Positions 329-22,830 of a stretch of 48,698 nt of DNA are shown piece by piece. The DNA lies in the NCBI GenBank assembly GCA_029938215.1, contig JAOZVJ010000002.1, positions 1 through 48,698 on the forward strand, given 5' to 3'. This DNA comes from Arcobacteraceae bacterium. GTDB taxonomy: Bacteria > Campylobacterota > Campylobacteria > Campylobacterales > Arcobacteraceae. Within the stretch, counting starts at the first letter, position 1, and every line of letters begins with the position of its first letter. A program made the position numbers and the translations under genes. The notes under the pieces were generated by a model. The model ran no database searches. It had not been told where the DNA came from and was given only the letters and a program-made list of their open reading frames with translations.

Positions 329-640
329 TTACCCTAAAAATGGGTTAGCATATAATGCAATTAATGCAATTACAAGTGTATAGATAACTTGAGCTTCAAT
401 CATCGCAAGAGCGATAAACATTGTAGTCATAAGTTTTCCACCCATACCTGGGTTTCTTGCAGTTCCTGCGATTGTAGCAGCAGCAGTATTACCCATACCA
501 ATAGCACCACCCATAGCAGCAATACCAAGACCAACACCAGCAGCTAATACTGAGTAAGCTTGAACCATAGAATCAGCGCCAGCTTCGCTAGCAAATGCAG
601 CAGTTGCAAAAGCAACCATTAAGAATAAAATTTTTTTCAT
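329..640 (-). CDS. atpE: F0F1 ATP synthase subunit c
   Basis: 103 aa, two hydrophobic helices. Gly-rich helix GLGIAAMGGAIGMG, polar loop ARNP, and carboxylate helix ALAMIEAQVIY are typical of c-ring subunits. Confidence 0.92.
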   Translation of the reverse strand: MKKILFLMVAFATAAFASEAGADSMVQAYSVLAAGVGLGIAAMGGAIGMGNTAAATIAGTARNPGMGGKLMTTMFIALAMIEAQVIYTLVIALIALYANPFLG

Positions 641-811
641 TCTGTATCCTTTTAAAATTTGTATTTACAAAGTCTGTTCGGCTTGCGTAACTTGATGTAA
701 CATACACCAAGCAATAACTATATAAATACAGTTATTTCCCTACTTAATACTTTGATTGACTGCATTTTATCTAAAATAATATTATATTAAAATTAAAAAA
801 TGTAATAAAAC

Positions 812-834
812 TAAATAAGACAATTTTTATCTTA
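812..834. promoter_or_regulatory. Candidate operator, copy 1 of a 23-nt motif shared with position 3068-3090
   Basis: TAAATAAGACAATTTTTATCTTA contains the inverted repeat TAAGA-N9-TCTTA. It lies about 20 nt upstream of a TATAAT (854-859) in front of nifS. Confidence 0.45.
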
Positions 835-878
835 GTTAGGTTAAACTTCATTTTATAATATATAAAAAGGAGTTAATC

Positions 879-2075
879 GTGGAAGTATATTTAGACAATA
901 ACTCAACAACACAGTTTGACCCAAAGGTTAAAGAGGTGTTTTGTAGCAGTGTGGATAATTTTGGGAACGCAAATGTTATTCATAATCAGGGCATTAAAAC
1001 AAGAGCAGCATTAAATGAAGCATATGATAAGATTTATGATAGCTTAAATGCAAGCGATGACGATGATATCATATTTACATCTTCAACTACTGAAGGAAAT
1101 AATGCAGTAATAAAAACTTTTTTAGATGCTTTTTTAAGAGGTAGTGAAAAAAATCATATTATTTCAAGTGTAGCAGAACATGCTTCTATTAAGTCGCCAC
1201 TTAATTATTGCAAAAGTTTTGGCATGGAAGTTACATATATAGGGACTGATGAAAATGGTTTGATTCGTCTTGAAGATTTAAAAAATGCAATAACTCCTAA
1301 GACAGCATTGGTAAGTGTCTTAATGGCAAGTAATGAGACTGGTGCTATTCAGCCAATAAAAGAGATGGCTAAAATTTGCCATGGTCGTGATGTTCCATTT
1401 CATAGTGATGGTGCTCAGGCTATTGGTAAGATTAAAGTTGATTTGCAAGATTTGGGAGTTGATTATTTCACTTGGTCTGCACATAAATTTCATGGGCCAA
1501 AAGGAGTTGGTGGATTATTTATAAAAGCAAAGGCTCCATATGTGCCATTGATTCATGGAAGTAAAAATGTGATGGGTGGGAAAAGAGCAGGAAGTCTTTA
1601 TAATAATGGAATATTTGCAATGGCAGAAGCTATAAAAATATCCAACTCTACTATGAATATCGCTTATATTGAAAATCATACGAAAGTTTTAAGAGATAAA
1701 TTAGAAGCTGAAATTTTAAAAATACCTGATACGAAATCTTATGTACCAAAAGAATATAGACTAAACAATATTGTTGTCGTTTCTTTTAGAGGAATAGAAG
1801 GTGAAGCAATGCTTTGGGATATGAATGAAAATGGTATTTATATTTCAACTGGAAGTAGCTGTAGTAGTGAAGATTTGGAAGCTAGTGCTGTTGTAGAAGC
1901 TTTGGGAGAAAAGACAGAGATAGCAAATGCAACTGTTATGTTTGCACTAAGTAAGTTTACAACCGAAGAAGAGATTGATTATGTTGTTGAAAAGCTTAAT
2001 GTGATAGTAAAAAGAATTAGAGAAATATCTATGACTTACGCTAAGCAAGATGCATTTTCAGTACATTTACATTAA
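879..2075 (+). CDS. nifS: NifS-type cysteine desulfurase (PLP-dependent)
   Basis: GTG start 6 nt after AAGGAG. N-terminus VYLDNNSTT, PLP-lysine motif SAHKFHGPKG, and active-site Cys loop STGSSCSS. Immediately followed by nifU. Confidence 0.92.
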   Translation: MEVYLDNNSTTQFDPKVKEVFCSSVDNFGNANVIHNQGIKTRAALNEAYDKIYDSLNASDDDDIIFTSSTTEGNNAVIKTFLDAFLRGSEKNHIISSVAEHASIKSPLNYCKSFGMEVTYIGTDENGLIRLEDLKNAITPKTALVSVLMASNETGAIQPIKEMAKICHGRDVPFHSDGAQAIGKIKVDLQDLGVDYFTWSAHKFHGPKGVGGLFIKAKAPYVPLIHGSKNVMGGKRAGSLYNNGIFAMAEAIKISNSTMNIAYIENHTKVLRDKLEAEILKIPDTKSYVPKEYRLNNIVVVSFRGIEGEAMLWDMNENGIYISTGSSCSSEDLEASAVVEALGEKTEIANATVMFALSKFTTEEEIDYVVEKLNVIVKRIREISMTYAKQDAFSVHLH

Positions 2076-2089
2076 AAAGGAAAAATATT

Positions 2090-3070
2090 ATGGCAAGAGA
2101 TGATTTAATAAGCGGAAATGTCTGGGAGCAATATAGCCAAAAAGTTCAAGATAGAATGAACAATCCAAAAGCAATGGGAGAACTTAATCAAGCAGATGCA
2201 GATGCAAAAGGCGCAAGGCTAATAGTCGCTGATTTTGGTGCAGAATCTTGCGGTGATGCTGTAAGACTATTTTGGTTGGTTGATGAAGCTACTGATGCGA
2301 TTATTGATAGTAAATTTAAATCTTTTGGTTGTGGAACTGCTATTGCTTCTAGTGATGCTATGGCAGAACTTTGTATAGGAAAAACTGTTGATGAGGCTAT
2401 AAAAATTACAAATAAAGAAGTTGAAGCATTTTTAAGAGATGATGATGGAACTCCTGCTGTTCCTCCTCAAAAAATGCATTGTAGCGTAATGGCTTACGAT
2501 GTTATACTTGAGGCTGCTGCTCAATATAAAGGTGTCGAGCGAAGCATTTTGGAAAATCAAGATATAGTTTGTGAATGCGCAAGAGTTACAAAACAAGAAG
2601 TTGTTGATGCAATTAGAAATAACAATCTAACAACAGTTGAACAAATTGGAGAAATAACAAAAGCTGGAACATTTTGTAAAAGTTGCATAAGACCAGGTGG
2701 CCATGAAGAAAAAGATATTTATTTAGTAGATATTTTAGAAGATACAAGAGCTCAAATAGATAAGGAAAAATTAGAGGTTGCCGCTAATACAACACAAAGT
2801 GGAGAAATGAGTTTTGGTAAAATGACAATTGTTCAAAAAATTAAAGCTATTGATGTAGTGATAGATGAATACATAAGACCAATGTTAGTAATGGATGGTG
2901 GAGATATGGAGATAATTGATATAAAAGAAAATCTTCCGTATTTTGATATTTATATTAGATATTTAGGTGCTTGTGGAAGTTGTCCTAGCGGAGCTACAAG
3001 TACGCTTTACGCTATTGAAACTACACTTAAACAAAAAGTAAATGAAAATATTAGAGTATTACCTATTTAA
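2090..3070 (+). CDS. nifU: NifU Fe-S cluster scaffold (three-domain type)
   Basis: IscU-like N-domain cysteines (ESCGD, FGCGTA, MHCSV), central BFD-like CxC...CxxC (CECARV...FCKSC), and a C-terminal NifU domain GACGSCPS. Confidence 0.92.
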   Translation: MARDDLISGNVWEQYSQKVQDRMNNPKAMGELNQADADAKGARLIVADFGAESCGDAVRLFWLVDEATDAIIDSKFKSFGCGTAIASSDAMAELCIGKTVDEAIKITNKEVEAFLRDDDGTPAVPPQKMHCSVMAYDVILEAAAQYKGVERSILENQDIVCECARVTKQEVVDAIRNNNLTTVEQIGEITKAGTFCKSCIRPGGHEEKDIYLVDILEDTRAQIDKEKLEVAANTTQSGEMSFGKMTIVQKIKAIDVVIDEYIRPMLVMDGGDMEIIDIKENLPYFDIYIRYLGACGSCPSGATSTLYAIETTLKQKVNENIRVLPI

Positions 3071-3090
3071 ATAAGACAATTTTTATCTTA
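3068..3090. promoter_or_regulatory. Candidate operator, copy 2 of the 23-nt motif
   Basis: Identical 23 nt TAAATAAGACAATTTTTATCTTA. It starts on the nifU stop codon and sits 45 nt upstream of the next gene (start 3136). Confidence 0.45.
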
Positions 3091-3135
3091 TTTAAGATAT
3101 TATTTCAAAACAAATTAAAAATTAGGAGAAAATAA

Positions 3136-3480
3136 ATGAGTTTATTACCAGAAAATGCGGAGAAGGTTGAAGTAGCAGGGGCAACAGTTGATTTTTTTAA
3201 ATATATACAAGATGGTTTAACAACATACCAATTTGATACAAGTAAATGCGGACCACCAGATCCTATGGTAAATGCAATGGCTGGACTTCAAGTGCTTGAT
3301 GATAATTCACAATTAATTATGTACAATCACAAAGCACCAGCAGGATTATTTCCAAAAATTGAAGCTCAGTATGATTATACAGCTGAAGATTTAGATATTG
3401 GAATAGCAAAAATGGTATTTACTAAAAAAGGCGGAGCTAAAGCTAATACAGATTTTAATAACAATAGTTGTAATGGGTAA
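3136..3480 (+). CDS. DUF2249 / TusA-fold-like small protein
   Basis: 114 aa with RBS AGGAG. The segment FDTSKCGPPDPMVNAMAGLQVLDDNSQLIMYNHKAPAGLFPKI resembles the DUF2249/TusA CPxP-helix and 'hdr-P-pL' pattern, recalled from memory. Confidence 0.55.
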   Translation: MSLLPENAEKVEVAGATVDFFKYIQDGLTTYQFDTSKCGPPDPMVNAMAGLQVLDDNSQLIMYNHKAPAGLFPKIEAQYDYTAEDLDIGIAKMVFTKKGGAKANTDFNNNSCNG

Positions 3481-3487
3481 TAAGTAG

Positions 3488-4720
3488 ATGGCAGTATCTA
3501 CTGATTTTGCCCCACCTTTTAAATTAATAGCACCTTATTTTGTAATAGGTGCTATTTTTTTTGTCTTTAGCGTGGCTTTACTTTTTGGTTTTGATATTTC
3601 AAATTTAAACAGTATGGACAGTCACACTTTATCGTGGGTTCACATATTTTTGCTTGGATTTGTGATGATGGTTATATTTGGAGCAATGGCACAATTAGTG
3701 CCAGTGGTACTTGAAGTTGGACATTTTGCAGTAGATATATATTATATAATTTATCCATTATTATTTATAGGTACTATTCTTATGGGATATGGTTTTTTAT
3801 ATAGTCCTGAACTTTTGCCTTACGGAGGTGTTGTTGTTCTCGTATCTTTACTTGTATTTGTATTTGAAACTTTTATGACAATTAAAAAAGTAAAAAAATT
3901 TAATCTTGTTATGGTTAGTGTGGTTATAGCAAATATATTTTTATTTTTGGGATTAATCTTTGGAATAATGATGGCATTAGGTTATGCTGGAACTATTAGC
4001 GTAGATATTATGTCTTTGTTAAAAGCACATATATATTTAGTGCTTGGCGGTTATGTTGGAATTACGATTATGGGAATGAGTCTAATACTTCTTCCTATGT
4101 TTTGGCTTTCACATAGTTTTAGTTGGCGACCAGTAGAATACGCACTTACTATTATGAGTGTTGCAGTTGTAGTTGTTATGCTTTCATCTATTTTTGATAG
4201 CAATATACTAGAATACGCAGGTTATATTTTAAGTATTATAGCTTTATGTTTGTACTTTTATCAAATTTATATTATCTATAAGACAAGGGTAAGATTGGAT
4301 AAGGATATATATTTGTATTCTCTTTTATTTTCTTATGTTTGTTTGGCATTAGTTTTAATTATGGGCGTAATATATTTGTTTTATCCAAATACAAGTTTAT
4401 TACTAACTATTGGGTGGATTTTATTTTTTGGCTATATTACTTTTGTAATAACTGGACATTTATATAAGATAGTTCCATTTTTGGTTTGGTATGAAAGATT
4501 TGCTCCTCTTATTGGAAAACAAAAAGTTCCAATGCTTGCGGATATGGTACCAGAAAGAAGTGCAAAATTTCAATTTGCTTTTAGTGCATTAGGCGTAACA
4601 ATTTGTGCGATAGGAATATTTTTTGGAATTAATGATATTTTTAAAGCGGGCGTTAGTTTTTTGCTTGTAGGTAGTATATTTATGGTAAAAGATTTAATGT
4701 ATATGATAAATTTTAAATAA
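3488..4720 (+). CDS. Polytopic (about 12-TM) membrane protein, possibly NnrS-like; paralogue of 6134-7408
   Basis: 410 aa and almost entirely hydrophobic helices. Conserved His-containing helices: WVHIFLLGFVMMVIFGAMAQLVPV, AHIYLVLGGYVGITIMGMSLILLPMF, GHLYKIVPFLVWYERF. Confidence 0.5.
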   Translation: MAVSTDFAPPFKLIAPYFVIGAIFFVFSVALLFGFDISNLNSMDSHTLSWVHIFLLGFVMMVIFGAMAQLVPVVLEVGHFAVDIYYIIYPLLFIGTILMGYGFLYSPELLPYGGVVVLVSLLVFVFETFMTIKKVKKFNLVMVSVVIANIFLFLGLIFGIMMALGYAGTISVDIMSLLKAHIYLVLGGYVGITIMGMSLILLPMFWLSHSFSWRPVEYALTIMSVAVVVVMLSSIFDSNILEYAGYILSIIALCLYFYQIYIIYKTRVRLDKDIYLYSLLFSYVCLALVLIMGVIYLFYPNTSLLLTIGWILFFGYITFVITGHLYKIVPFLVWYERFAPLIGKQKVPMLADMVPERSAKFQFAFSALGVTICAIGIFFGINDIFKAGVSFLLVGSIFMVKDLMYMINFK

Positions 4721-4746
4721 TTTAAGATAATAAAAAAGGATAAAAT

Positions 4747-5052
4747 GTGATAACTAAAGAAGAAATATATAAGGCAATATCGACTGTAAATGATCCAGAA
4801 GTTGGATTTAATTTAGTAGAAATGGGTTTGATTTATGATGCAACTTGCGATGAGAATTATAATGCAAAAGTAACTATGACTTTAAGTACGAAAGCTTGTC
4901 CGCTACATCAAATGATTGTTCAATGGGTAGAAGAAGCAGTGTTAAGAGAAATTGAAACTATTCAAAATGTAGAAGTAGAAGTAGTGTGGGAACCAGCTTG
5001 GAATATATCTATGGCATCTGATGAGGTAAAAGCTAAATTAGGTGGCTCTTAA
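4747..5052 (+). CDS. DUF59 (SufT/MIP18-like) Fe-S assembly-associated protein
   Basis: GTG start 6 nt after AAGGA. 101 aa with ITKEEIYKAISTVNDPEVGFNLVEMGLIYD..., the hallmark DUF59 N-terminal motif. Confidence 0.75.
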   Translation: MITKEEIYKAISTVNDPEVGFNLVEMGLIYDATCDENYNAKVTMTLSTKACPLHQMIVQWVEEAVLREIETIQNVEVEVVWEPAWNISMASDEVKAKLGGS

Positions 5053-5077
5053 TTAAAAAAATAAAAAAGGAAGTATT

Positions 5078-5671
5078 TTGAAATATCCAAAATTTTTTGA
5101 TGAAATAGAAACTATAAAAACACAAGATGATTTATCAGATTTTTTAGGCACATTTGAAGATGGTTTAATAGAATTTAGTTATCTTGATGTTGTAAAAAGT
5201 GCTGGACATAGTTGCCCTACGCTTGCAGGTGCATATATTATGGCTTTAGAAGGTTTAAAGGCACTCTACAAGGATGAGACTCCAGTACGAGGTGAGATTT
5301 TTGTTTCATTTAGTGATGATGCTAAAAATGGAGTTGCTGGAGTTATCGCAAATGCAATAACGCATATTACTGGAGCTACAATAACTAGCGGATTTAAAGG
5401 TATTGGCGGAAATTTTGTAAGACATAGTTTGATGGAATTTAATGCAAATATTAGTTCAGATGTAAAATTTCAAAGATTAGATAATGGCGAAAGCGTTGAA
5501 GTAACTTATGATCCAAGTAGTATTCAAGAAAATCCTTTGCAAAGAGAACTTATGCAAAAAGTTATGCAAGGTATAGCAACAAAAGAAGAAAAGATAAGTT
5601 TCGGTAAACTTTGGCAACAAAAAGTTGAAAATATATTTAAAAATATTGATAAAGTAATTACGGTTAAATAG
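5078..5671 (+). CDS. FmdE-domain-like protein
   Basis: TTG start after AAGGAAG. 197 aa. SAGHSCPTLAGAYIMALEGLKAL resembles the FmdE HxCPG-helix motif. Confidence 0.5.
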   Translation: MKYPKFFDEIETIKTQDDLSDFLGTFEDGLIEFSYLDVVKSAGHSCPTLAGAYIMALEGLKALYKDETPVRGEIFVSFSDDAKNGVAGVIANAITHITGATITSGFKGIGGNFVRHSLMEFNANISSDVKFQRLDNGESVEVTYDPSSIQENPLQRELMQKVMQGIATKEEKISFGKLWQQKVENIFKNIDKVITVK

Positions 5672-5680
5672 GATAATAAA

Positions 5681-6130
5681 ATGGCAATTTTAAGTGAATT
5701 TATGAAAAATGACCATAGATCTTGTGATGCTGGTTTTGCAAATATGGAAAATGCTGTTGCAGATGAGAACTGGACAAATGCCAGAAAACAATTTGAAAAA
5801 TTTGCAAGTGATTTATTGCATCATTTTGATATGGAAGAAGAAGTTATGTTTCCAGCTTTTGAAGCAAGAAGTGAGAATGCACATTGTAATCCAACTCCAA
5901 TGATGATTATGGAGCATGAACAAATGAGAAATTTAATAAAACAAATGAGAAACGATATAGAATCTAAGGATAAAAATCATTTTTTTGGTTTAAGTGAAAC
6001 TTTGATGATGGCTATGCAACAGCATAATATGAAAGAAGAGCAAATGATGTATCCAATGATTGATGATGCAATGGACAATGAAAGTAAAATGTTGCTTGAT
6101 AGTATGAAAGATTTTCCAAGAAAAGATTAA
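5681..6130 (+). CDS. Hemerythrin-like (HHE cation-binding) di-iron protein
   Basis: 149 aa. Contains MKNDHRSCD, LLHHFDMEEEVMFPAFE and MMIMEHEQM: His/Glu ligand spacing on a four-helix hemerythrin pattern. Confidence 0.8.
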   Translation: MAILSEFMKNDHRSCDAGFANMENAVADENWTNARKQFEKFASDLLHHFDMEEEVMFPAFEARSENAHCNPTPMMIMEHEQMRNLIKQMRNDIESKDKNHFFGLSETLMMAMQQHNMKEEQMMYPMIDDAMDNESKMLLDSMKDFPRKD

Positions 6131-6133
6131 ATT

Positions 6134-7408
6134 TTGTTTCAAGGCTTATCAACTAATCAAGCACCTCCAATAAGTGTACCTTTTAGATTTTTTTTAACTG
6201 CACCTTTATTTGGTATTTTAATATCTTTCGTTTTTTTTAATTTTCCAGCAGAAGAAATATTCAATAGATATTCTCCTGTTGCTATTGGAACTATTCATCT
6301 TTTTACTTTAGGAATTTTATCACAGATTGTATTTGGTGCATTACAACAAATGCTTCCAGTTTTGGCCGGTGTTGTTATTAAAAAGCCACTTATTTTTGCT
6401 AATATTGTACATACAACTTTAACTTTTGGAACTTTATTTTTAAGTTGCGGATTTATATTTTCACAAGAATTATTATTTCCAATTGGGGCAGGGTTGTTAT
6501 GTATCGCTTTTGGTTTCTTTTTCTTTGTGATAATTAGACTTTTATTTAAAGTAAAATATATTACAAGCACTGTAAATGCTATGAAAATATTTGCATTAGC
6601 TGGGTTGGTCACTGCTTTAATAGGAATTTATTTGATATGGCAATATATAGATGTAAATATTAATTCTTATCATTATTTAATTACAAATATCCATATTTTA
6701 TTTGCTAGTTTTGGATTTGCTATTATATTGATAATGGGTGTAGCTTTTCAAGTAATTCCTATGTTTTATGTGGCAAAAGATTTTCCAAAATTCATACAAA
6801 ATAAATTTCCAAGAGTTTTATTTTGTATGATGATTTTATGTGCAATTTTTATAATTTTAAAACAAGATATAAGCATAATAAAATTTATTATATCTTTTAT
6901 GATTATAATATTTGCATTATATGGATTAAATAGTTTAAATAATAGAAAAAGATTAGTTTCTGATGTAACACTATGGTATTGGAAATTTTCATTTTATTCT
7001 TTAATTGTATCAATGTTGATTTTTGTAACACAGTTTTATAAGTCTGACAGTCTTTTGGCGATAATTTTTATATTTGGTTTTTTATATCCATTACTGCAAG
7101 GTATGATTTATAAAATTATTCCATTCTTATCTTGGTTTCATCTGAGTAGTCGCGGTTATTTTTCTATACCAAATTTAAGAGAATATATAAAAGAAGATAG
7201 TATTAAAGTGCAGTTCTATATTTATGTTTCCTCTTTTTGTTTCTTTGTTTTAAGTATATTTTTCAACCAATTATTTTTATATATAGCATCATCTTTATTT
7301 ATGATATCAAATTTAATGTTTTTATTTAATATGATAACTGCAATTTTAAAATATCGTAAAATTTCAAAAACAAATCCAATGGATATTTTTAATATGAGTA
7401 ATAAATAA
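6134..7408 (+). CDS. Polytopic membrane protein, paralogue of 3488-4720 (possibly NnrS-like)
   Basis: TTG start 3 nt after the hemerythrin stop. 424 aa. Motifs parallel the first copy: IHLFTLGILSQIVFGALQQMLPVL, IHILFASFGFAIILIMGVAFQVIPMF, GMIYKIIPFLSWFHLS. Confidence 0.5.
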   Translation: MFQGLSTNQAPPISVPFRFFLTAPLFGILISFVFFNFPAEEIFNRYSPVAIGTIHLFTLGILSQIVFGALQQMLPVLAGVVIKKPLIFANIVHTTLTFGTLFLSCGFIFSQELLFPIGAGLLCIAFGFFFFVIIRLLFKVKYITSTVNAMKIFALAGLVTALIGIYLIWQYIDVNINSYHYLITNIHILFASFGFAIILIMGVAFQVIPMFYVAKDFPKFIQNKFPRVLFCMMILCAIFIILKQDISIIKFIISFMIIIFALYGLNSLNNRKRLVSDVTLWYWKFSFYSLIVSMLIFVTQFYKSDSLLAIIFIFGFLYPLLQGMIYKIIPFLSWFHLSSRGYFSIPNLREYIKEDSIKVQFYIYVSSFCFFVLSIFFNQLFLYIASSLFMISNLMFLFNMITAILKYRKISKTNPMDIFNMSNK

Positions 7409-8046
7409 TGCAACAATTTAGTAGATGTAAAAGTTTATTTGGTGATAATTTTCAAAAATTACAAAAAGCTAAAATAATTATTTTAGGTGTCGGAGGAGTC
7501 GGTGGTCATGCTCTTGATTGTCTTTATAGAAGCGGTGTGCAGGATATTACAATAGTTGATTTTGATAAATATGAATTAACAAATCAAAATAGACAAATAG
7601 GAAGTGATGCGATTGGTATATCTAAAGTTGAACATTTGAAAGTTTTATATCCAAATATAAAAATAATTTCACAAAAGATAGACTTACAGTGGGTTGAAGA
7701 TTTTGATATGTCTGAATTTGATTTGATTTTGGATGCAATAGATGATATAAAACCAAAAATACAAATTATTAAGAAGTATTATGAAAAACTAATTAGTACA
7801 ACCGGAAGTTCAAAAAGACAAGATCCAACAAAAATAGAATATATAAATATTTTTCAAACATATAGCGACCCATTTGCGAAAAGAATTAGAAAAGAATTAA
7901 AAAAAGAGAATTTTGATAAAGATTTTAAAGTAATTTTTAGTAGTGAAGAACCAAAATGTAAAGATATGGGAAGCTTTATTGGGGTTACTGGCTCATTCGG
8001 TCTCTTTATGTGCTCTGTTGCGGTTGATAAATTACTTAACAAATAA
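7408..8046 (+). CDS. tcdA: tRNA threonylcarbamoyladenosine dehydratase (ThiF/MoeB E1-like, TcdA/CsdL family)
   Basis: 212 aa with Rossmann motif ILGVGGVGGHALDCLYRSGVQDITIVDFDKYELTNQNRQ. The ATG shares one nt with the upstream TAA (TAATG at 7406-7410). Confidence 0.75.
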   Translation: MQQFSRCKSLFGDNFQKLQKAKIIILGVGGVGGHALDCLYRSGVQDITIVDFDKYELTNQNRQIGSDAIGISKVEHLKVLYPNIKIISQKIDLQWVEDFDMSEFDLILDAIDDIKPKIQIIKKYYEKLISTTGSSKRQDPTKIEYINIFQTYSDPFAKRIRKELKKENFDKDFKVIFSSEEPKCKDMGSFIGVTGSFGLFMCSVAVDKLLNK

Positions 8047-8100
8047 TTAAGTATTTAAACGATAAAATTTACCCATATGAACTAACAAAAGGAATATAAA

Positions 8101-9012
8101 ATGAGTGAAATTAGCGATACGGTTGAACAACTAACTCAAGCACATCTTAGGAATGTACAACAACTCGCAGTATTTTATACAGGACATGATGATATTTATG
8201 CGATTAATATAGCTAAAGTTAAGGCGTTTATTATCACTGAAGAAATTATGGTTAGTAGTACTCCTGCAGAATCAGAGGTTATCTCTGGTATTGCTACTAT
8301 TAGAGGAGAGCCTATTACATTAATAAATCTTGACAAATGGATAGGGCACAATGCTTTGCCTATTAAAGATTATAAACTTATTATATATTGCGAATATAAT
8401 CATAGAAAAGTAGGTTTTTTAATAAAAGATATGATTAATATTGTTGAAAAAACAACAGATGAACTTAATAATACAGAAGAGCAAAATAAAAAAATTACAT
8501 ATACTACTTATGTAGATGTTAAAGGTGAAAGTATGCTTTGTACTGTATTTAATGCAGAGCAACTTTTGGTAGATATTGGTTGGATGGAAACAGGTTCTGA
8601 TGTTTTGGATAAATATGTAAGACATCCAGTAGATAGAAAAAAAGTAATTTTAGCAGCAGAAGATAGTGCAGTAGCAAGAAAAGTTTTAATAGATTTTTTT
8701 GAGAAAGCTAATGCTAAATATGAGATATTTCCTAATGGAAAAGAGTTATTAAATAGATTGGAAGAAGCAGGAGCTAAAGATATAGGACTTGTTATTTCAG
8801 ATATTGAAATGCCAGAAACGGATGGATATCAGGTTCTTCAGGCTATAAAAGATAATTCAAAATATGCTAGCATACCAGTTGTTATAAATTCTAGTATGAC
8901 AACAGCAGCCGTTAAACATAAAATGGAACTTTTGGGAGCAGATGATTTTATCGGAAAAACAGATATTCCTTCATTGTATGATGTTGTTGTAAAACATATT
9001 GGAACTGTTTAA
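8101..9012 (+). CDS. cheV: Chemotaxis coupling protein CheV (CheW-like domain plus receiver domain)
   Basis: 303 aa. N-terminal CheW-like region, then a C-terminal REC domain (ILAAEDS...VISDIEMPETDGYQV...). Confidence 0.85.
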   Translation: MSEISDTVEQLTQAHLRNVQQLAVFYTGHDDIYAINIAKVKAFIITEEIMVSSTPAESEVISGIATIRGEPITLINLDKWIGHNALPIKDYKLIIYCEYNHRKVGFLIKDMINIVEKTTDELNNTEEQNKKITYTTYVDVKGESMLCTVFNAEQLLVDIGWMETGSDVLDKYVRHPVDRKKVILAAEDSAVARKVLIDFFEKANAKYEIFPNGKELLNRLEEAGAKDIGLVISDIEMPETDGYQVLQAIKDNSKYASIPVVINSSMTTAAVKHKMELLGADDFIGKTDIPSLYDVVVKHIGTV

Positions 9013-9022
9013 TATTTTAAAT

Positions 9023-9053
9023 AAAAAGAGTTGATTTTAAGTTAACTCTTTTT
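9023..9053. terminator. Bidirectional terminator between cheV and topA
   Basis: 10-bp stem AAAAAGAGTT (9023-9032) / AACTCTTTTT (9044-9053). It overlaps the topA stop codon. Confidence 0.6.
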
Positions 9054-11400
9054 ATTTATTGTTTGGTGTAGTTTTCTTTTTGCTAGTTGTTTTTTTAGCT
9101 GGTGCTTTTCTTCCTCTTTTTGCAGGTTGATTTTTAATTATATTCTTTACTTCATCTATAGTTAAAGCTTTAATATCTTGTTCATCAAGATTTTTAGGTA
9201 ATTTGAAATTCTTTTTCCCCTCTTTGATATATGGTCCATATCTTCCTATTAGAAGTTGAATTTTATCATCTGGAAAATCTTTAAGAAGTGCTTTTGCTTT
9301 TGCTTCTTTTGTTTCTTTAACAACAACTAATGCTCTAGGTAATTCTATTGTGTATGGATTATCTTCTTTTAAACTAAAATAATCAGTTCTTATTTGTATG
9401 TAAGGACCAAATCTTCCAATGTTCACCTTTATGTCATCTCCATTTTCATCCTGTCCCAATATTTTTGGTAACTGAAGTAATATAAGTGCTTCTTCCAAAT
9501 TTATTCTATCTACACTTTGATCTTTTGCTAAACTTGCAAACTTAGGTTTTATTTCTTTACCATTTTCATCTACATCATCTTTATGCCCAAGTTGCACAAA
9601 AGCACCATATCTTCCTGTACTTGCGTATATTTTTTTATTAGTTTTTGAATCAAGTCCAAGTTCTCTAGCTTCTGCAAATTTTGCACGAGGTGCATTTTCT
9701 TCTTTGTCTTCAATGGCTTTTACAAAATTACCATAAAATTCTTGCATTACGGTTTGCCATGTAATTTTGCCATCAGCAATTTTATCAAATTCTTCTTCAA
9801 TATGAGCAGTAAATCCTAAGTTTATAATATCTGGAAAATGTTCGACTAAAAAATCATTTACAACTTCACCAATTGGTGCAGGGGCAAGTTTTTTATCTTC
9901 TGTTTTTATAACATAATCTCTTGCTTGTATTGTTGATATTGTTGGAGCATAAGTTGATGGTCGTCCAATTCCTTCTGATTCCATTTTTTTAACCAAACTT
10001 GCTTCCGTATATCTCGCTGGTGGTTTTGTAAAGTTTTGTTCAGTTTCAAGATTTTCTAATTCTAAAATAGTATCTTTTTTTACATTTGGCAAAAACTTTT
10101 CCGTATTATCAAGTACTGCTTCTGGGTCATCACTACCTTCTGTATAAGATTTCATAAATCCAGCAAATACTATTTTTGTACCTTTTGCTTGAAATTCATA
10201 CTCACTATCTTTTCCGGCAATTATCTTATAAGTAGTATTTGCAACAATTGCTTGTGTCATCTGTGTGGCAATCGTTCTTTTCCAAATCAAACTATAAAGT
10301 CTAAATTGAGAATGGTCAAGATATGGCTGAACATCACTTGGCTTTAAATGCATATTTACCGGACGAATTGCTTCATGGGCTTCTTGAGCACCTTTTGATT
10401 TGCTTTTGTAATGTCTTGCTTTATCTAATGCATACTCACTGCCATATTCTTTAATAATAACTTCTTTTGCCATATCTGTAGCCGTTTTTGATAAATTTAC
10501 ACTATCTGTTCTCATATATGTAATTAAACCGCCAGTATGATTTGGAATCGCTACTCCGCCCTCATAAAGTTGTTGAGCCACAATCATAGTTTGTTTTACA
10601 CCAAAACCAGCTTTTCTACTTGCCTCTTGTTGTAAAGTTGAAGTTGTAAATGGAGGTGCTGGATTTCTTTTGCTTTGTTTTTCCTCAATATTATTTAATA
10701 GGTATTGCCCAAGTTCGCAAGAAGTCTTAATATCAGTAGCTTCTTTTTCATTTTTAACTTTTTTTGTTTTTCCATTTATTTTTGCTAGTTCTGCTCTAAA
10801 ATTTGGATTTGTAAAATCTAATTTTATTTTCCAAAACTCTTCTGGATTAAACGCTTTTATTTCTCTCTCTTTTTCAACTATGATTCGTACTGCTACACTT
10901 TGAACTCTACCAGCACTTAATCCATATCTTACTTTTTTCCAAAGAAGAGGACTCAGTTTGTACCCTACGGCTCTATCTAAAATCCTTCTTGCTTGTTGTG
11001 CATCTACTAAATGCTGATCTACTTCTCGTGGATTTTCTAAAGCTTCTAAAATTGCACCTTTAGTAATTTCGTGAAAAACTATCCTTTTAATAGTGTGTTT
11101 TTCAATTTTAAGTGCAGGAATTAAATGCCACGCAATAGCTTCTCCCTCTCTATCCTCATCGGCTGCTAGATAGATAACTGTATCTTTCTTGATTTGTTTC
11201 TTTAAATCAGCTATAACTTTTGTTTTATCTCTTGATACTTGATATTTTGGTTTAAAATTATCATCTGGATCAAAACCTAAAGAAGATTTTGGCAAATCTC
11301 TAACATGTCCCATAGAAGCCATAACAGTATAATCTTTACCTAAAAACTTTGATATAGTTCTTGCTTTTGCTGGTGACTCCACGATAACTAAATTTTTCAA
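9052..11400 (-). CDS. topA: DNA topoisomerase I
   Basis: 782 aa. TOPRIM N-terminus MKNLVIVESPAKA...DEDREGE and active-site region GLITYMRTDS. The C-terminus has three GR[YF]G[PA][YF] repeats and a Lys-rich tail. Confidence 0.95.
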   Translation of the reverse strand: MKNLVIVESPAKARTISKFLGKDYTVMASMGHVRDLPKSSLGFDPDDNFKPKYQVSRDKTKVIADLKKQIKKDTVIYLAADEDREGEAIAWHLIPALKIEKHTIKRIVFHEITKGAILEALENPREVDQHLVDAQQARRILDRAVGYKLSPLLWKKVRYGLSAGRVQSVAVRIIVEKEREIKAFNPEEFWKIKLDFTNPNFRAELAKINGKTKKVKNEKEATDIKTSCELGQYLLNNIEEKQSKRNPAPPFTTSTLQQEASRKAGFGVKQTMIVAQQLYEGGVAIPNHTGGLITYMRTDSVNLSKTATDMAKEVIIKEYGSEYALDKARHYKSKSKGAQEAHEAIRPVNMHLKPSDVQPYLDHSQFRLYSLIWKRTIATQMTQAIVANTTYKIIAGKDSEYEFQAKGTKIVFAGFMKSYTEGSDDPEAVLDNTEKFLPNVKKDTILELENLETEQNFTKPPARYTEASLVKKMESEGIGRPSTYAPTISTIQARDYVIKTEDKKLAPAPIGEVVNDFLVEHFPDIINLGFTAHIEEEFDKIADGKITWQTVMQEFYGNFVKAIEDKEENAPRAKFAEARELGLDSKTNKKIYASTGRYGAFVQLGHKDDVDENGKEIKPKFASLAKDQSVDRINLEEALILLQLPKILGQDENGDDIKVNIGRFGPYIQIRTDYFSLKEDNPYTIELPRALVVVKETKEAKAKALLKDFPDDKIQLLIGRYGPYIKEGKKNFKLPKNLDEQDIKALTIDEVKNIIKNQPAKRGRKAPAKKTTSKKKTTPNNK

Positions 11401-13905: not shown

Positions 13906-15516
13906 ATGAAATTGAATAAGTTAGTTTTAAGTACTGTTGCAGCTGCAACTTTAATGAGTGTTAATGCTGTAGCATTTGATGCAGAAATATCATATGAGAG
14001 AGAATGTCAAGGTTGTCATGGACCTGCTCATCAAGGTGGTGTTGGTAGTGATATTAGACCTGATGTTATCAAGGGTAAAAATGCTCAAATGTTAGCTGAA
14101 ACCATTTTAGAAGGTAGAGCTGGTACAGCAATGCCTCCACACAATGCGATTTTATCTAAAGGTGACGCTTCGGCAATGGTTGATTATTTACAACATTTTA
14201 TGGGTAAAAAAGAGATGGTTTTAACTCTTGATGCTGTTAAAGCAAAATGGAGAACTTTTAACGACAGAATGAAATTATTTAAAAAATATCCAAAAGCTGC
14301 AGATGTATCTGATGCTAAAGATATTTGTTTTGTAACAGAGAGAGATGCTTCTAAAGTTACTTTCTTAGATGGTACAAAAGGTACAAAACTATCAACTCAC
14401 CCAGCTGGTTTTGCTGTGCATGTTACAGTTACAAATAAAAGACAGCCAAGATATGCGTACTCTATATCTAGAGACGGTCTTCTTACAATGTTTGATTTAA
14501 ATTCTAAAGGTCAGCAAAAAATTGCTGAAGTTAGAGTTGGATCTGAGTCTAGAGGACTTGCAGTTTCTCCAGATGGTAAATATGTTATGGCTGGTAACTA
14601 CACTCCAGGTGGAGCAGTACTTTGTGATGCTATGACTTTAGAGCCACTTAAAGTATACCCTACTTCAAGCGTAATTAATAACGAAGGTAACATTGAATCT
14701 TCAAGAGTTGCTTCAATTGCTGATACACCATATGGACCTTACTTTGCATTTGCACTTAAAGATGCTGGTCATGTTTATATCGTAGATTATTCTAAACCAG
14801 ATTTTCCAGTAGTTGGTGATATTCCAAATATTGGTAACATTCTTCATGATGCATTCTTAAATGAAGGTAAAGAAATCGGTAGATACTATATGATTGCTTC
14901 TCAAGGTTCTGATTTAATTGGTATCGTTGACTTTAAAACTAAATCTTTAGCTGCTAAAGTTTATACAGGTTCTAAAGCTAAGCCACATCCAGGTCAAGGT
15001 TCATCTTGGTACAATGAAGAATATGGACAATTGCATGCAACTGTTAATATGAATGTTGGTCAAGTAACAATCTGGGACAATAACTGGGATGTTGTAAGAC
15101 ATATACCAACAGGTGGAGGAGCTTTATTTGTAGGTACATCTGAGCATACACCTTGGATTTGGGCTGATAATGTATTAGGTGGACCAGCTAACTGGAATAA
15201 AGTACACTTAGTAAACAAACAACATTTAGAAGTTGATAGAATTATTGAAGTTGGTAAAAAAGAAGGTAAACTTATTGATGCTAAATCTCATAAAACTATT
15301 GCTTCTTGGAAAGTTCCTACTTCTAAAGTAGTTCCAAGAATTTTACATGCTGAGCCAGCAAACCATGGTCAATGGACTATGATTTCTGAGTGGAATACAG
15401 GTAGAATTGGTATCTATGAAGCTACTACAGGTAAATTTGTTAAGTATATCACAGGATTGACAACTCCTACATTTACTTACTCAATTGAGCATAGACAAAC
15501 TATACCAGGCGCTTAA
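13906..15516 (+). CDS. nirS: Cytochrome cd1 nitrite reductase
   Basis: RBS AAGGAG. 536 aa with a signal peptide, N-terminal haem c site CQGCH, then a long beta-propeller region with typical cd1 segments (FAVHVTV..., PHPGQGSSW). Confidence 0.9.
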   Translation: MKLNKLVLSTVAAATLMSVNAVAFDAEISYERECQGCHGPAHQGGVGSDIRPDVIKGKNAQMLAETILEGRAGTAMPPHNAILSKGDASAMVDYLQHFMGKKEMVLTLDAVKAKWRTFNDRMKLFKKYPKAADVSDAKDICFVTERDASKVTFLDGTKGTKLSTHPAGFAVHVTVTNKRQPRYAYSISRDGLLTMFDLNSKGQQKIAEVRVGSESRGLAVSPDGKYVMAGNYTPGGAVLCDAMTLEPLKVYPTSSVINNEGNIESSRVASIADTPYGPYFAFALKDAGHVYIVDYSKPDFPVVGDIPNIGNILHDAFLNEGKEIGRYYMIASQGSDLIGIVDFKTKSLAAKVYTGSKAKPHPGQGSSWYNEEYGQLHATVNMNVGQVTIWDNNWDVVRHIPTGGGALFVGTSEHTPWIWADNVLGGPANWNKVHLVNKQHLEVDRIIEVGKKEGKLIDAKSHKTIASWKVPTSKVVPRILHAEPANHGQWTMISEWNTGRIGIYEATTGKFVKYITGLTTPTFTYSIEHRQTIPGA

Positions 15517-15727: not shown

Positions 15728-16846
15728 ATGAAAATTTTTGGAATATTTTTTATCTTATTTTTATCTTTTTTAAGTGCTAAATATTTGGATACTAAAAGTT
15801 GTGCAGAGTGCCATGAGATGATTCATTATGAGCATACACATTCGATGCATCATAATTCATCTTTATTTAAAGATGAGTTTCATAGAAAAATTAAAGAAAA
15901 AACATATCCTAATAGTTATCTTTGTGCTTTATGTCATACGCCTGCTGCAAAAAATCTAAGAGCAGTTATTACAGGAAAAGAGCAACCAAGCCAAACAAAA
16001 GAACAATCTGATGGTGTTTCTTGTTTTTATTGCCATCAAATAAACAAAGTTCTTATTACAAAGCATGAAAATATAAATTTTTATGCTTTTTCTCCAGGCT
16101 CAAAACCAAAGTTTTTTGGAAACTTAAAAAATCCAGATACCAGTGATAAACATAAAAGCGACAGTACAAATAAAATTTATAAAAATTCTCAAGTTTGTAT
16201 GGGGTGTCATGGTAAAAAATTTAACAAATATGATGTAGAAATATGCAATGGATTAGATGAAAAAGGAAAAACAAGCGATTGTATAAGTTGTCATATGCCT
16301 AAATTTCCTGGAGGCACTACAAAACTTAATAAAAGAGGAAGAGAAGAATACACATCTCACGAGTTTCTTGGAATAAGATCTGATGAAATGATACAAAAAG
16401 CAGTTGAATTAAGTTTAAAAGTTTTGGATAAGAATTCGATACAATTAACAATAAAAAATAAAATGGGTCATTCTATAATAATGCAACCAATGAGATTAAA
16501 ATTTGCTCAAACTGAAATTGTAAGATTTGGAAAAGTAGTTTGGAAAAATTTTAAGAAATATCCAATAGAAGACAAAAAAGCAACTTTTACAATTCTTTTT
16601 AAAAACAATGATGGCAAGCAGGTTCTTCCTCCATCTGCAACTGGATATAAATATAAAAATAATTTAAAAGCAAATCAAGCAAAAGAAATTGTTTATAAAG
16701 TGCCAGAACTTCAAAAAGGTGATATTATAAAAAGTACTTGGATAAGTTATGTTTTAAGACCGGCTTTGGCAAAAACTTTAAAAATAACTGATAGGGAAAT
16801 GTTAAAAAAATATATTGGGACGAAAACTAAAATAGTTGTTAAATAA
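15728..16846 (+). CDS. Pentahaem c-type cytochrome with a haem-free C-terminal domain
   Basis: 372 aa with a signal peptide. All five CxxCH sites (CAECH, CALCH, CFYCH, CMGCH, CISCH) fall in the first ~190 aa. It has its own TATAAT (15692-15697) after the nirS terminator. Confidence 0.85.
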   Translation: MKIFGIFFILFLSFLSAKYLDTKSCAECHEMIHYEHTHSMHHNSSLFKDEFHRKIKEKTYPNSYLCALCHTPAAKNLRAVITGKEQPSQTKEQSDGVSCFYCHQINKVLITKHENINFYAFSPGSKPKFFGNLKNPDTSDKHKSDSTNKIYKNSQVCMGCHGKKFNKYDVEICNGLDEKGKTSDCISCHMPKFPGGTTKLNKRGREEYTSHEFLGIRSDEMIQKAVELSLKVLDKNSIQLTIKNKMGHSIIMQPMRLKFAQTEIVRFGKVVWKNFKKYPIEDKKATFTILFKNNDGKQVLPPSATGYKYKNNLKANQAKEIVYKVPELQKGDIIKSTWISYVLRPALAKTLKITDREMLKKYIGTKTKIVVK

Positions 16847-17598: not shown

Positions 17599-17612
17599 TT
17601 GATAATTATCAA
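17599..17612. promoter_or_regulatory. Perfect Crp/Fnr-family box TTGAT-N4-ATCAA in the divergent Sel1 / haem d1 operon promoter region
   Basis: TTGATAATTATCAA. A -10-like GATAAT/TAATAT (17633-17640) lies at class II-type spacing. The start codon is at 17673. Confidence 0.65.
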
Positions 17613-17672: not shown

Positions 17673-18002
17673 ATGAATAGTATAGTTAAATCGGTTTTTT
17701 TTATAATATTTTTATTTAATATTGTATATGCCAATCAATTAACAACAGGTGAAAAAGTTTTTAAAGCATATTGTTGGGGATGTCATCATCAAACATCAGT
17801 AGCGTTTGGTCCATCATTTGAAGAGATTGCAAATAAAAGATCAACAGGTGAAATACAAGGACATATCGTAAGTCCTAAATCTACATACAAACAACTTGGA
17901 CATAAAAGAAGTGTAATGCCAGCTTTTGGCGATAAGTTATCGCAAAAAGAACTTGATCTTATTACTAATTTTATTTTAAACTATAAGACAAAAGGTAAAT
18001 AA
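17673..18002 (+). CDS. Monohaem class I cytochrome c (NirC/NirM-like by context)
   Basis: 109 aa with a signal peptide, a single CWGCH site and a distal Met region (RSVMPAF). It is the first gene of the nirJ-nirF-nirE operon. Confidence 0.75.
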   Translation: MNSIVKSVFFIIFLFNIVYANQLTTGEKVFKAYCWGCHHQTSVAFGPSFEEIANKRSTGEIQGHIVSPKSTYKQLGHKRSVMPAFGDKLSQKELDLITNFILNYKTKGK

Positions 18003-19123
18003 TGTTTAGACTTTCAAATTTAATAAAATCAACTTTGGAAAATAAAAAAGAACGACTTTTAAATGGTTCTATAATGATATGGAATTTTACAAATAGATGT
18101 AATCTTTTTTGCCATCATTGTTATAGTAAAGCAGATGCAAACGGAACAGATACTTTATCGTTCGAGCAAATTTGTGATACAATTCCTGGTATGTTAAATG
18201 CTGGTGTTAAATTTGTTATATTTAGCGGTGGAGAGCCATTGATAAGAAAAGATATTTTTGATATCGCAGATGAAATGAAAAAAGCTGGAATCATTACATA
18301 TTTATCTACAAATGGTATGTATATAAATGAAAAAAATGCAAAACAAATTGTAGATACATTTAATTATATAGGCATTAGTATTGACGGAATAGAAGAGATT
18401 CATAATCAATTTAGAGGACATAAAGATTCATATAAAAAAGCAATAGAAGGCATAAAGCATATTCAAAAAGCAGGTGGAAATGCAGGTATTAGATTTACAT
18501 TGACAAAAGAGACGAGAGATAGTTTTTATTCGATGTTTGATTTGGTTGAGGAATTAGGTGCTAATAAACTTTATATATCACATTTAGTATATTCTGGTCG
18601 CGGACTTGATAATCTTGAAATAGATATTACAAAAGAGGAAAGAAGAAAATATGTTGAGTTTATTATAGACAAAGCATTTGAATATTACAAAGCAGGAAAA
18701 GATATAGATGTAGTTACTGGAAATATGGAGATGGATTCTGTTTTATTAATTCAAAGATTTCAAAAAGATTATCCAGAGTTTGTCGATTCTTTAACTACTA
18801 AGCTTAAGGCTTGGGGCGGAAATAGTGCAGGTAATCGTTTGGGTAATATGGATTGGGAAGGAAATGTTAAGCCAGACCCATTTTTTCCAGAATATATTGG
18901 TAATTATTTAGAAACTTCATTTGAAGATGTTTGGGCAGGAAAAAGTAGTGATATTGTTGAAAAATTAAGACAAACACCACGAAATATAAGTGGCAGATGT
19001 AAAGAGTGTAAATATCTTGATATTTGTAATGGCGGAAGCAGAAGTAGAGCTTACGCGATACATGATGATTTATGGGCAGAAGATCCATCGTGTTATTTAT
19101 CTCTTGATGAGATAAGTAAATAA
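18002..19123 (+). CDS. nirJ: Haem d1 biosynthesis radical SAM protein NirJ
   Basis: 373 aa. Radical SAM motif CNLFCHHCY (CxxxCxxC) plus a C-terminal Cys cluster CKECKYLDICNGG. The ATG overlaps the upstream TAA. Confidence 0.85.
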   Translation: MFRLSNLIKSTLENKKERLLNGSIMIWNFTNRCNLFCHHCYSKADANGTDTLSFEQICDTIPGMLNAGVKFVIFSGGEPLIRKDIFDIADEMKKAGIITYLSTNGMYINEKNAKQIVDTFNYIGISIDGIEEIHNQFRGHKDSYKKAIEGIKHIQKAGGNAGIRFTLTKETRDSFYSMFDLVEELGANKLYISHLVYSGRGLDNLEIDITKEERRKYVEFIIDKAFEYYKAGKDIDVVTGNMEMDSVLLIQRFQKDYPEFVDSLTTKLKAWGGNSAGNRLGNMDWEGNVKPDPFFPEYIGNYLETSFEDVWAGKSSDIVEKLRQTPRNISGRCKECKYLDICNGGSRSRAYAIHDDLWAEDPSCYLSLDEISK

Positions 19124-19152
19124 AAAATTAAAATTAAAAATTGGGAGAAAAA

Positions 19153-21025: not shown

Positions 21026-21037
21026 CCTTGCAAATAT

Positions 21038-21943: not shown

Positions 21944-22024
21944 ATTAAAATATTTTCAATTTTATCAACTAAATATTATTTTAAAAATGCTATCATTGTC
22001 TAAATTAATTATAAAGGCTGTAGT

Positions 22025-22354: not shown

Positions 22355-22462
22355 TTTTATTTTTGTAAAATAATTGTTTAGACTGGATGTTGTTTTTGGT
22401 GATACGATTTATAAATTGTATTTAATGTGGTATTTTAGAATTTTTAATAAAGTGAGGTTTAT

Positions 22463-22756: not shown

Positions 22757-22785
22757 AAATTTATATTTTACTTGAATATATTAAA

Positions 22786-22811: not shown

Positions 22812-22830
22812 CTATTTGATAACATATAGA

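Follow-up and report, generated by a model that had tools for sequence, protein, structure and literature searches.

In Campylobacter jejuni, the hemerythrin gene herA (cj0241c) immediately precedes iscS-nifU, and without it the enzymes Por and Oor become more sensitive to oxygen (PMC4257069). The NorA and RIC/YtfE proteins mitigate nitric oxide (NO) stress (PMC9045102), nnrS contributes to NO resistance in Vibrio cholerae (PMC3345576), and DUF2249 genes are induced in haloarchaeal denitrification (PMC11218638). Here, a six-gene cluster encoding a DUF2249-like protein, a DUF59 protein, an FmdE-domain protein, a hemerythrin and two membrane proteins (memA and memB) was analysed in an Arcobacteraceae bacterium. 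The cluster occupies positions 3136 to 7408 of contig JAOZVJ010000002.1 (assembly GCA_029938215.1), of which positions 1 to 48,698 form the stretch of DNA studied (hereafter the window). The closest relatives of the source organism are Arcobacteraceae metagenome-assembled genomes, with 81-84% identity in memA.

Comparison with other genomes indicated that the cluster consists of two paralogous, independently conserved modules placed side by side, together with an optional FmdE gene. The membrane protein of each module has, as modelled, the catalytic-subunit fold of haem-copper oxidases (HCOs) and NO reductases (NORs).

The first-pass annotation, made from the sequence alone, had described six packed genes behind nifS-nifU. 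All six were confirmed as plus-strand open reading frames (ORFs) with gaps of 3-26 nt (7, 26, 25, 9 and 3 nt in order from g1 to g6), downstream of nifS (879-2075, NifS-epsilon type) and nifU (2090-3070). The features are as follows:

3136-3480, + strand: g1, DUF2249-like (TusA-fold) cytoplasmic protein of 114 amino acids (aa) with a 28-aa N-terminal extension; partner of memA
3488-4720, + strand: g2 (memA), 410 aa, 12 transmembrane (TM) helices, modelled HCO-superfamily fold; the His324 subtype, which pairs with DUF59
4747-5052, + strand: g3, DUF59/FeS_assembly_P protein, 101 aa, TM0487-like; third member of the triad with g1 and memA
5078-5671, + strand: g4, FmdE-domain protein, 197 aa; optional accessory of the triad
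5681-6130, + strand: g5, single-domain hemerythrin (HHE di-iron), 149 aa; orthologous, by sequence, to the hemerythrins that precede memB-type genes across phyla
6134-7408, + strand: g6 (memB), 424 aa, 12 TM helices, modelled HCO-superfamily fold; the widespread Met324/His336 subtype, which pairs with hemerythrin
3070-3092, + strand: AT-rich hairpin AATAAGA-N9-TCTTATT, read from the sequence, overlapping the final base of the nifU stop codon

Fold and conserved residues of the membrane proteins

The memA and memB proteins align over their full length with 27% identity (BLASTP, E 4e-24), indicating that the paralogy proposed in the first-pass annotation is real. Neither protein has a match in Pfam, NCBIfam or the PDB sequences (phmmer for PDB), and all their database relatives are named 'hypothetical protein'. 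An exhaustive search retrieved 2979 family clusters at 50% identity with E ≤ 1e-3, and 914 with E ≤ 1e-30. Among the 147 top representatives, 136 are nearer to memB than to memA, suggesting that memB is the general form and memA a derived subtype.

The AlphaFold2 (AF2) models of memA (pLDDT 78, pTM 0.75) and memB (pLDDT 94.9, pTM 0.93) both contain 12 TM helices. In Foldseek searches against PDB, the top 37 matches of the memA model are all subunit I of HCOs or NORs, including cbb3 CcoN (3mk7) and bo3 (7cub), both with a TMq of 0.74, and cNOR (3o0r; TMq 0.67), and the next unrelated match has an E of 0.56. The top 24 matches of the memB model are likewise all HCO/NOR subunit I, with cbb3 CcoN as the best (E 1.5e-5). 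The TMq of the two models to these subunits ranges from 0.6 to 0.74. The family profile also contains an internal threefold repeat: its three four-helix units align with each other in hhalign (EU1-EU2, E 5.5e-6; EU2-EU3, 1.8e-4; EU1-EU3, 1.5e-3), and a G-x6-P motif is invariant in the second helix of each unit (TM2, TM6 and TM10).

Direct sequence comparison with the oxidases gave little. The COX1 family (PF00115) has no match to memA or memB at E ≤ 0.1, nor to 10 relatives at E ≤ 1, and the family profile aligned with the single sequence of Escherichia coli CyoB, in the local mode of hhalign, at an E of 0.5. The relationship to the HCOs therefore comes from the fold and the internal repeats only. 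Two other family memberships were rejected. The first-pass annotation had guessed that the membrane proteins are NnrS-like; they have no PF05940 match, the family profile aligns with Cupriavidus necator NnrS at an E of 0.059 over 69 columns (TM1-TM2), and NnrS is encoded as a separate gene adjoining memB-type genes in loci L082 (C. necator plasmid pHG1) and L095. It had also named membership of an unrelated transporter family as a finding that would speak against its proposal, and here the nearest non-HCO Foldseek matches have E > 0.5 and TM-scores < 0.3.

Two of the six canonical metal-ligand histidines of the oxidases (one each in TM2 and TM6, two each in TM7 and TM10) are kept. Those in TM2 (H52 in memA, H55 in memB) and TM6 (H181, H187) are invariant in all 147 family representatives, and TM7 has no histidine. 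Position 324, toward the cytoplasmic end of TM10, is a methionine in memB and in 92% of the family, and a histidine (H324) in the memA subtype only. Of the three shared His-bearing helices pointed out in the first-pass annotation, TM2 and TM6 thus hold for the whole family, while the helix with the YKI[IV]PFL motif does not. The CuB and helix-X ligands are missing, indicating that memA and memB are not working oxidases or NORs.

The lysine and arginine counts on the loops of the N-terminal side and of the other side are 9:0 in memA and 13:3 in memB, which, as in oxidases, assigns the N-terminus and the even-numbered loops to the cytoplasmic side. Both invariant histidines are close to the periplasmic (outer) end of their helices, TM2 and TM6, at a distance of 7-9 residues. 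The cytoplasmic face is also conserved, with an N-terminal LSxDQAPP, an RxRxxxD in loop 8-9 and a G[M/H]xYKIxPFLxW[x]H at the end of TM10. Relative to the G-x6-P anchor, H52 lies at P-20 and H181 at P-22, and the hhalign alignment needs a two-residue gap. In real oxidases, the two helix-X histidines (H376 and H378, bovine numbering) are also spaced by two residues and face different pores. This two-residue offset, together with the pseudo-symmetry, suggests that the 'early' histidine of TM6 and the 'late' histidine of TM2 are both directed into the pore that oxidases leave empty. The pore geometry would be consistent with one bis-His haem, and most likely the two invariant histidines hold a single haem.

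Soluble partners and the two modules

The domain names given to the soluble proteins in the first-pass annotation were upheld, with three of the four above the Pfam cut-offs. The g1 protein scores below the gathering threshold of DUF2249 (PF10006; 21.1 bits against 29.5, E 2.8e-4). It is nevertheless DUF2249-like, because it matches Pfam-positive DUF2249 proteins from the equivalent operon position in BLASTP (E 1.6e-5 for a gammaproteobacterial one, and 5.7e-4) and because DUF2249 is fused to the membrane protein in some relatives (see below); a D-x-S/R...PP(E/D)P motif is common to g1 and the Pfam-positive proteins in the alignment. The g3 protein belongs to DUF59/FeS_assembly_P (PF01883; E 2.6e-15, 56.9 bits, cut-off 23.5) and matches TM0487 (PDB 1uwd; E 9.6e-21). 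It falls under the equivalog cut-offs for SufT and SUF-associated proteins (TIGR02945, 85.0 against 143.4 bits; TIGR03406, 71.6 against 202.6 bits), and no suf genes adjoin it. The g4 protein matches FmdE (PF02663; E 3.9e-9, 37.1 bits, cut-off 22.9) and has no PDB sequence match.

The sole domain of g5 is Pfam Hemerythrin (E 4.1e-19). The protein lacks ScdA_N and scores 39.6 bits against the RIC/YtfE equivalog TIGR03652 (cut-off 204.7), and the hemerythrin partner carries no signal peptide. It shares 43-53% identity with the partner hemerythrins of Arcobacteraceae, Sedimenticola, a tubeworm symbiont and Herbaspirillum, 42% with that of Nitrosophilus and 34% with that of C. necator pHG1. Judged from these sequences, the hemerythrins that partner memB-type genes across phyla are orthologues of g5.

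A one-genome-per-species scan found more than 527 memA relatives, and the following counts cover the best 80 loci. All 80 are from Campylobacterota, including Arcobacteraceae, Sulfurimonas, Sulfurospirillum, Sulfuricurvum, Sulfurovum, Nitratifractor, Nitratiruptor and Hydrogenimonas. An orthologue of g1 lies directly 5' of memA in 76 loci and one of g3 directly 3' of it in 74, forming a conserved triad, and an FmdE homologue is found near the triad in about 15. A hemerythrin gene and memB stand beside the triad in two loci only, in the order of the window in L001 and with the modules reversed in L002. Among these loci, the complete six-gene array recurs in L001 alone, and the view of the six genes as one unit in the first-pass annotation had to be given up. 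In an 83-kb plasmid of Aliarcobacter butzleri (NZ_CP104333.1, locus L088), the triad alone (6661-8534) lies between a Tn3-family transposase/recombinase and an IS21 element. This transposon setting and a regulatory box of its own (see below) suggest that the triad moves as a self-contained cassette.

The memB-type loci compared are 16 in number and span Campylobacterota and Beta-, Gamma- and Alphaproteobacteria. A hemerythrin gene adjoins the memB-type gene in 15 of them; only in Ralstonia does it not, and there the neighbours of the memB-type gene are narK-narGH and ubiU/V/T-like genes. In Arcobacteraceae, the pair is found behind nifS-nifU (nifS-nifU-hemerythrin-memB, L084) or alone (L085), and the adjacency of nifSU and hemerythrin recurs in the window, L001 and L084. 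C. necator H16 pHG1 (L082) encodes the hemerythrin, the membrane protein and a Crp/Fnr regulator between narK/NnrS and nosZ. Sedimenticola and the Lamellibrachia symbiont have hemerythrin, DUF2249, membrane protein and Crp/Fnr genes, and an Azospirillum plasmid (L087) has genes for a cytochrome c, a NorB/CcoN-type protein, DUF2249, the membrane protein, hemerythrin and hemA. HemN and NnrS genes are neighbours in L095. The pair is also present in Nitrosophilus, Herbaspirillum, Burkholderiales and further contigs, and in Betaproteobacteria the module adjoins genes for O2-labile Fe-S enzymes.

DUF2249 often accompanies the hemerythrin/memB pair. In two natural fusions (P0316 and P0359), a bona fide DUF2249 domain (E ~1e-12) is N-terminal to the membrane domain. 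Fusion at this end fits the cytoplasmic N-terminus and argues for physical coupling, and we infer a physical interaction between the membrane protein and its soluble partners.

Some further genes were observed near memB-type genes. In L094 (6492-7747), a 133-aa protein with a PF00115 COX1 match, possibly a free-standing four-helix unit, is encoded beside a hemerythrin/oxidase-like pair. Its neighbours include a hemerythrin-DUF2249 fusion and a Crp/Fnr regulator, with BcrAD/HgdD-type and ferredoxin genes upstream. In the Ralstonia solanacearum megaplasmid (L083, 8052-11668) and in L082 (14193-16570), the oxidase-like gene is near U32 peptidase pairs and an SCP2 protein gene, and one pHG1 U32 gene has a ubiquinone-biosynthesis GO annotation. 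These U32 pairs and SCP2 genes resemble the O2-independent ubiquinone biosynthesis genes ubiU/V/T, and would be a further anaerobic-respiration neighbour of the oxidase-like gene.

The fold shared with the catalytic subunits of NOR and cbb3 oxidase, the near-obligatory pairing with a di-iron protein (15/16 loci), the location in denitrification islands and the norCB-like pair adjoining the module in Azospirillum raise the question of whether the membrane protein and the hemerythrin form a new quinol- or cytochrome-dependent reductase or scavenger of NO (or O2), with the hemerythrin supplying non-haem iron in trans. We consider such an enzyme very unlikely. Four of the six canonical ligands are gone and TM7 has no histidine. 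The conserved histidines are in the periplasmic half, whereas the conserved docking surface faces the cytoplasm and the hemerythrin lacks a signal peptide. No electron-entry subunit (subunit II, CcoO or NorC) is encoded in 879-9012 or in the conserved modules of the relatives. The host organisms usually have bona fide NOR genes too, for example in L087. A related idea, which we regard as a long shot, makes hemerythrin, DUF2249 and the oxidase-like protein the three components of a hitherto unrecognised apparatus that deals with NO or O2 and is a 'split' form descended from, or related to, NO reductase. A single membrane haem would then sit in the pore that is empty in real oxidases, and the di-iron centre of the hemerythrin would help in trans to bind, reduce or hand over the gas. 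If true, denitrifiers would have a new enzymatic route, found across thousands of lineages.

Regulation and genomic setting

Promoters were searched for an FNR/DNR-type box (TTGAT-N4-ATCAA, ≤ 1 mismatch), with shuffled promoters as the control. The box is found 5' of the g1 orthologue in 55 of 73 loci, nearly all at -62 to -74 from the start codon, compared with a mean of 1.6 and a maximum of 4 loci in the shuffled controls. It also stands upstream of the hemerythrin gene in L084 (-71), L085 (-72), L090 (-65) and L092 (-73), and the plasmid triad of L088 (-65). An NssR-type box (TTAAC-N4-GTTAA) is not enriched 5' of the g1 orthologues (2/73 loci, shuffle mean 1.7). DNR uses the FNR/DNR-type motif at nir, nor and nos promoters (PMC1274295). 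The positioned boxes at both modules suggest that, in most relatives, both belong to a low-oxygen or NO regulon common to denitrification genes. The link to denitrification, NO and low oxygen in the first-pass annotation thus gained comparative support from the boxes, the adjoining Crp/Fnr genes and the nar, nor, nos and NnrS neighbours.

In the window, no box with ≤ 1 mismatch precedes g1 (300 nt searched), g5, nifS or nirS. A perfect box, TTGATAATTATCAA, is located at 17599-17612, 74 nt 5' of the start at 17673 of an operon that encodes a cytochrome c and NirJ-like, NirF-like and NirE-like proteins. Another perfect box (48395-48408) lies inside a minus-strand gene, and a one-mismatch box (48572-48585) lies 55-68 nt upstream of the start of that gene. 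The operon with these boxes encodes a CobW/HypB/UreG-type GTPase (47819-48517), an ABC ATPase (47043-47822) and an SBP_bac_6 binding protein (46169-47041), and may be a metal-uptake operon in the same regulon.

A Crp/Fnr gene lies just upstream of the triad in 20 of the 80 Campylobacterota loci, and Crp/Fnr genes also adjoin the module in L082, L089, L092, L094 and L095. These regulators suggest a sensor or relay role, in which the single-haem membrane protein would sense NO or O2 within the membrane or the periplasm and, with DUF2249 and hemerythrin, would modulate Crp/Fnr-type or other regulators, so as to control denitrification genes and not to protect iron centres. A membrane protein lacking the catalytic binuclear centre would suit this role, hemerythrin domains are commonly sensor modules, and the DUF2249 proteins DrpA and DrpB of Thermus have been proposed as nitrate sensors (PMC11218638, PMC6282519). 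However, no Crp/Fnr gene adjoins the system in the window, L084, L085, L090 or the A. butzleri plasmid, and a pure sensor would explain neither the DUF59 and FmdE partners nor the nifSU adjacency. The module is itself a target of the FNR-type box, which suits an effector at least as well. A sensor is therefore an unlikely, though not negligible, explanation.

The nirS gene for cd1 nitrite reductase (13906-15516) and a haem d1/sirohaem gene set (17673-24552) are both present in the window, indicating that the organism is a cd1-type, NO-producing denitrifier, in agreement with the NirS organism recognised in the first-pass annotation. The haem d1 set encodes a cytochrome c, a NirJ-like radical SAM protein, a NirF/N-like D1-domain protein, a TP_methylase and a sirohaem synthase N-terminal domain, together with a NirDL-like protein on the minus strand; a NirE-like protein is named among the operon genes. 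Beside or within this region, the ORF at 15728-16846 has no Pfam match at E ≤ 1e-5, and those at 22025-22354 and 22463-22756 have none at E ≤ 1e-4.

The g1 ATG is preceded at 7 nt by an AGGAG Shine-Dalgarno sequence. The spacing of 3-26 nt makes co-transcription of g1-g6 likely. A consensus scan for sigma-70 promoters and terminators over 700-9200 gave counts equal to the shuffled expectation in this AT-rich DNA and is silent on co-transcription; the same scan found no plus-strand terminator-like site within 3100-7408. The hairpin at 3070-3092 is a possible weak nifU terminator. In L001, the nearest relative, the equivalent site has a stronger, GC-richer hairpin followed by a T run and overlapped by a one-mismatch FNR box.

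Downstream of g6 are a ThiF/TcdA-like gene and then a CheV-type gene. In the region 7406-8046, the ATG of the ThiF/TcdA-like gene and the g6 stop codon TAA overlap by one base (the last of TAA), which suggests translational coupling. In L084 and L085, the opposite strand carries the ThiF-like and CheV genes, past an argininosuccinate-lyase-type gene, so that this coupling would be local to the lineage of the window and L001. Upstream of nifS, a 103-aa ORF (329-640, minus strand) resembles by eye an F-type ATP synthase c subunit with an N-terminal signal-like segment.

The gene neighbourhoods also bear on a maturation role, in which the module would assist in the assembly of haem, iron or Fe-S centres, whether in denitrification enzymes or in other enzymes of anaerobic metabolism, and would not respond to stress. 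DUF59 is an Fe-S assembly family, FmdE is a further partner, nifS-nifU is adjacent, and hemA, HemN, sirohaem or haem d1 genes are among the neighbours. In addition, one product of a haloarchaeal nar operon joins DUF2249 to an Fe-S carrier NTPase (PMC11218638). By contrast, the widespread memB form has neither DUF59 nor FmdE, only hemerythrin with or without DUF2249, no client enzyme consistently adjoins the module, and the A. butzleri plasmid triad stands alone in a transposon context. We thus regard a role in maturation as rather improbable.

Proposed function and comparison with known systems

On balance, we lean towards the view that the membrane protein binds one haem and acts with its partners to shield iron centres from NO or O2, or to repair them, when cells denitrify or grow under microoxic conditions. 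Such protection would fit the placement next to nifSU in Arcobacteraceae, the O2-labile Fe-S enzyme neighbours in Betaproteobacteria and the DUF59 partner. The precedent of a C. jejuni hemerythrin beside nifS/nifU homologues that protects Fe-S enzymes, cited in the first-pass annotation, proved to be correct (herA, Por and Oor; PMC4257069), and the membrane-anchored Fe-S repair or delivery put forward there is a putative mechanism.

The core of each module is a 12-helix inner-membrane protein with the modelled oxidase/NOR fold and, most likely, a single haem near the periplasmic face. Its N-terminus and most conserved loops are on the cytoplasmic side, where they would meet the small soluble partners. 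For the widespread memB form these are a di-iron hemerythrin and usually a DUF2249 protein, and for the Campylobacterota-specific memA form a DUF2249-like and a DUF59 protein, sometimes with FmdE. In most relatives, an FNR/DNR-type promoter would drive both modules together with the denitrification genes. The Fe-S, di-iron and haem centres would be damaged by NO from the cd1 nitrite reductase, or by O2 entering anaerobic metabolism. In a possible division of labour, the membrane haem protein would bind the gas or supply electrons, and hemerythrin, DUF2249 and DUF59 would act on cytoplasmic iron. The system would thus be a functional analogue of NnrS plus YtfE/NorA. In the source organism, both modules may have been joined behind nifS-nifU with loss of the FNR box, and so been tied to the Fe-S biogenesis operon.

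Several points weigh against this protective role. Haem binding is predicted from two histidines only. A haem placed close to the periplasm would be a long way from the cytoplasmic partners, so that direct electron transfer would need another cofactor or a large conformational coupling. The box motif fits an O2 sensor (FNR) and an NO sensor (DNR/NnrR) alike, and with no such box at the cluster in the window, induction by NO or low O2 in the source organism is predicted from its relatives only. The phenotype of the Thermus DUF2249 proteins DrpA and DrpB concerns regulation and not repair (PMC6282519). The literature consulted contained no experimental study of the membrane family.

With its roughly 3000 clusters at 50% identity, the family is large. 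Neither Pfam nor NCBIfam has a model for it, and its members are everywhere called 'hypothetical protein'. Its carriers include C. necator H16, the R. solanacearum complex, Azospirillum, Sedimenticola and chemosynthetic symbionts. The location in denitrification islands and the FNR/DNR-type promoters suggest that the system probably helps denitrifiers to withstand the NO that they produce, or swings in oxygen, with a bearing on N2O and NO emissions and on the fitness of pathogens (Ralstonia, Arcobacter). An oxidase scaffold that has kept its fold and lost the binuclear centre is also informative on the origin of oxidases and NORs from four-helix units. From the close pairing of the membrane proteins with hemerythrin, DUF2249 and DUF59, direct hypotheses follow that suit genetically tractable hosts.

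Compared with the HCO/NOR catalytic subunits (CcoN, NorB, CyoB and COX1; PF00115), memA and memB have in common the modelled 12-TM fold of three four-helix pseudo-repeats, the cytoplasmic N-terminus and the outer-end histidines in TM2 and TM6. They differ in the lack of a PF00115 match, of the TM7 His-His and of the two helix-X histidines. They are also about 50-250 residues shorter, and soluble cytoplasmic partners replace subunit II, NorC or CcoO.

NnrS (PF05940), which contains haem and copper, is likewise a 12-TM protein with NO- or denitrification-linked regulation, and its protective, non-dominant role in NO resistance would by analogy resemble that of memA and memB (PMC3345576, PMC1274295). 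NnrS is distinct from memA and memB in profile, is encoded by a separate gene beside members of their family in L082 and L095, and has no obligatory hemerythrin or DUF2249 partner. Pei, Li, Kinch and Grishin (Protein Sci 2014;23:1220; hereafter Pei et al. 2014) reportedly placed NnrS in the HCO-homology (HCOH) set or superfamily.

Like YtfE/RIC, DnrN, NorA and C. jejuni HerA, g5 is a hemerythrin-fold HHE di-iron protein, and like that of HerA its gene is near Fe-S biogenesis genes, but unlike any of these proteins it is paired with a membrane protein. The DUF2249 proteins of Thermus thermophilus (DrpA/DrpB) and haloarchaea are small, are encoded in nitrate-respiration or denitrification clusters and are induced under denitrifying conditions (PMC6282519, PMC11218638). 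One of these papers cites Pei et al. 2014 as associating DUF2249 with the HCO superfamily (PMC11218638). The Thermus and haloarchaeal proteins were reported as putative sensors and not described as partnered with or fused to an HCO-like membrane protein, and g1 is a divergent member with an N-terminal extension.

The HCOH families of Pei et al. 2014 are said to be 12-TM proteins of three units with two conserved histidines and one predicted haem, and to be linked by context to denitrification and NO detoxification. On this description, memA and memB match these families in their three 4-TM units, two conserved histidines and denitrification-linked context. The family of memA and memB seems so far to have been noticed only computationally, probably in that work. 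Compared with Pei et al. 2014, the dissection into two modules, the cross-phylum orthology of the hemerythrins, the DUF59-linked memA subtype, the fusions and the positioned FNR-type box appear to be new.

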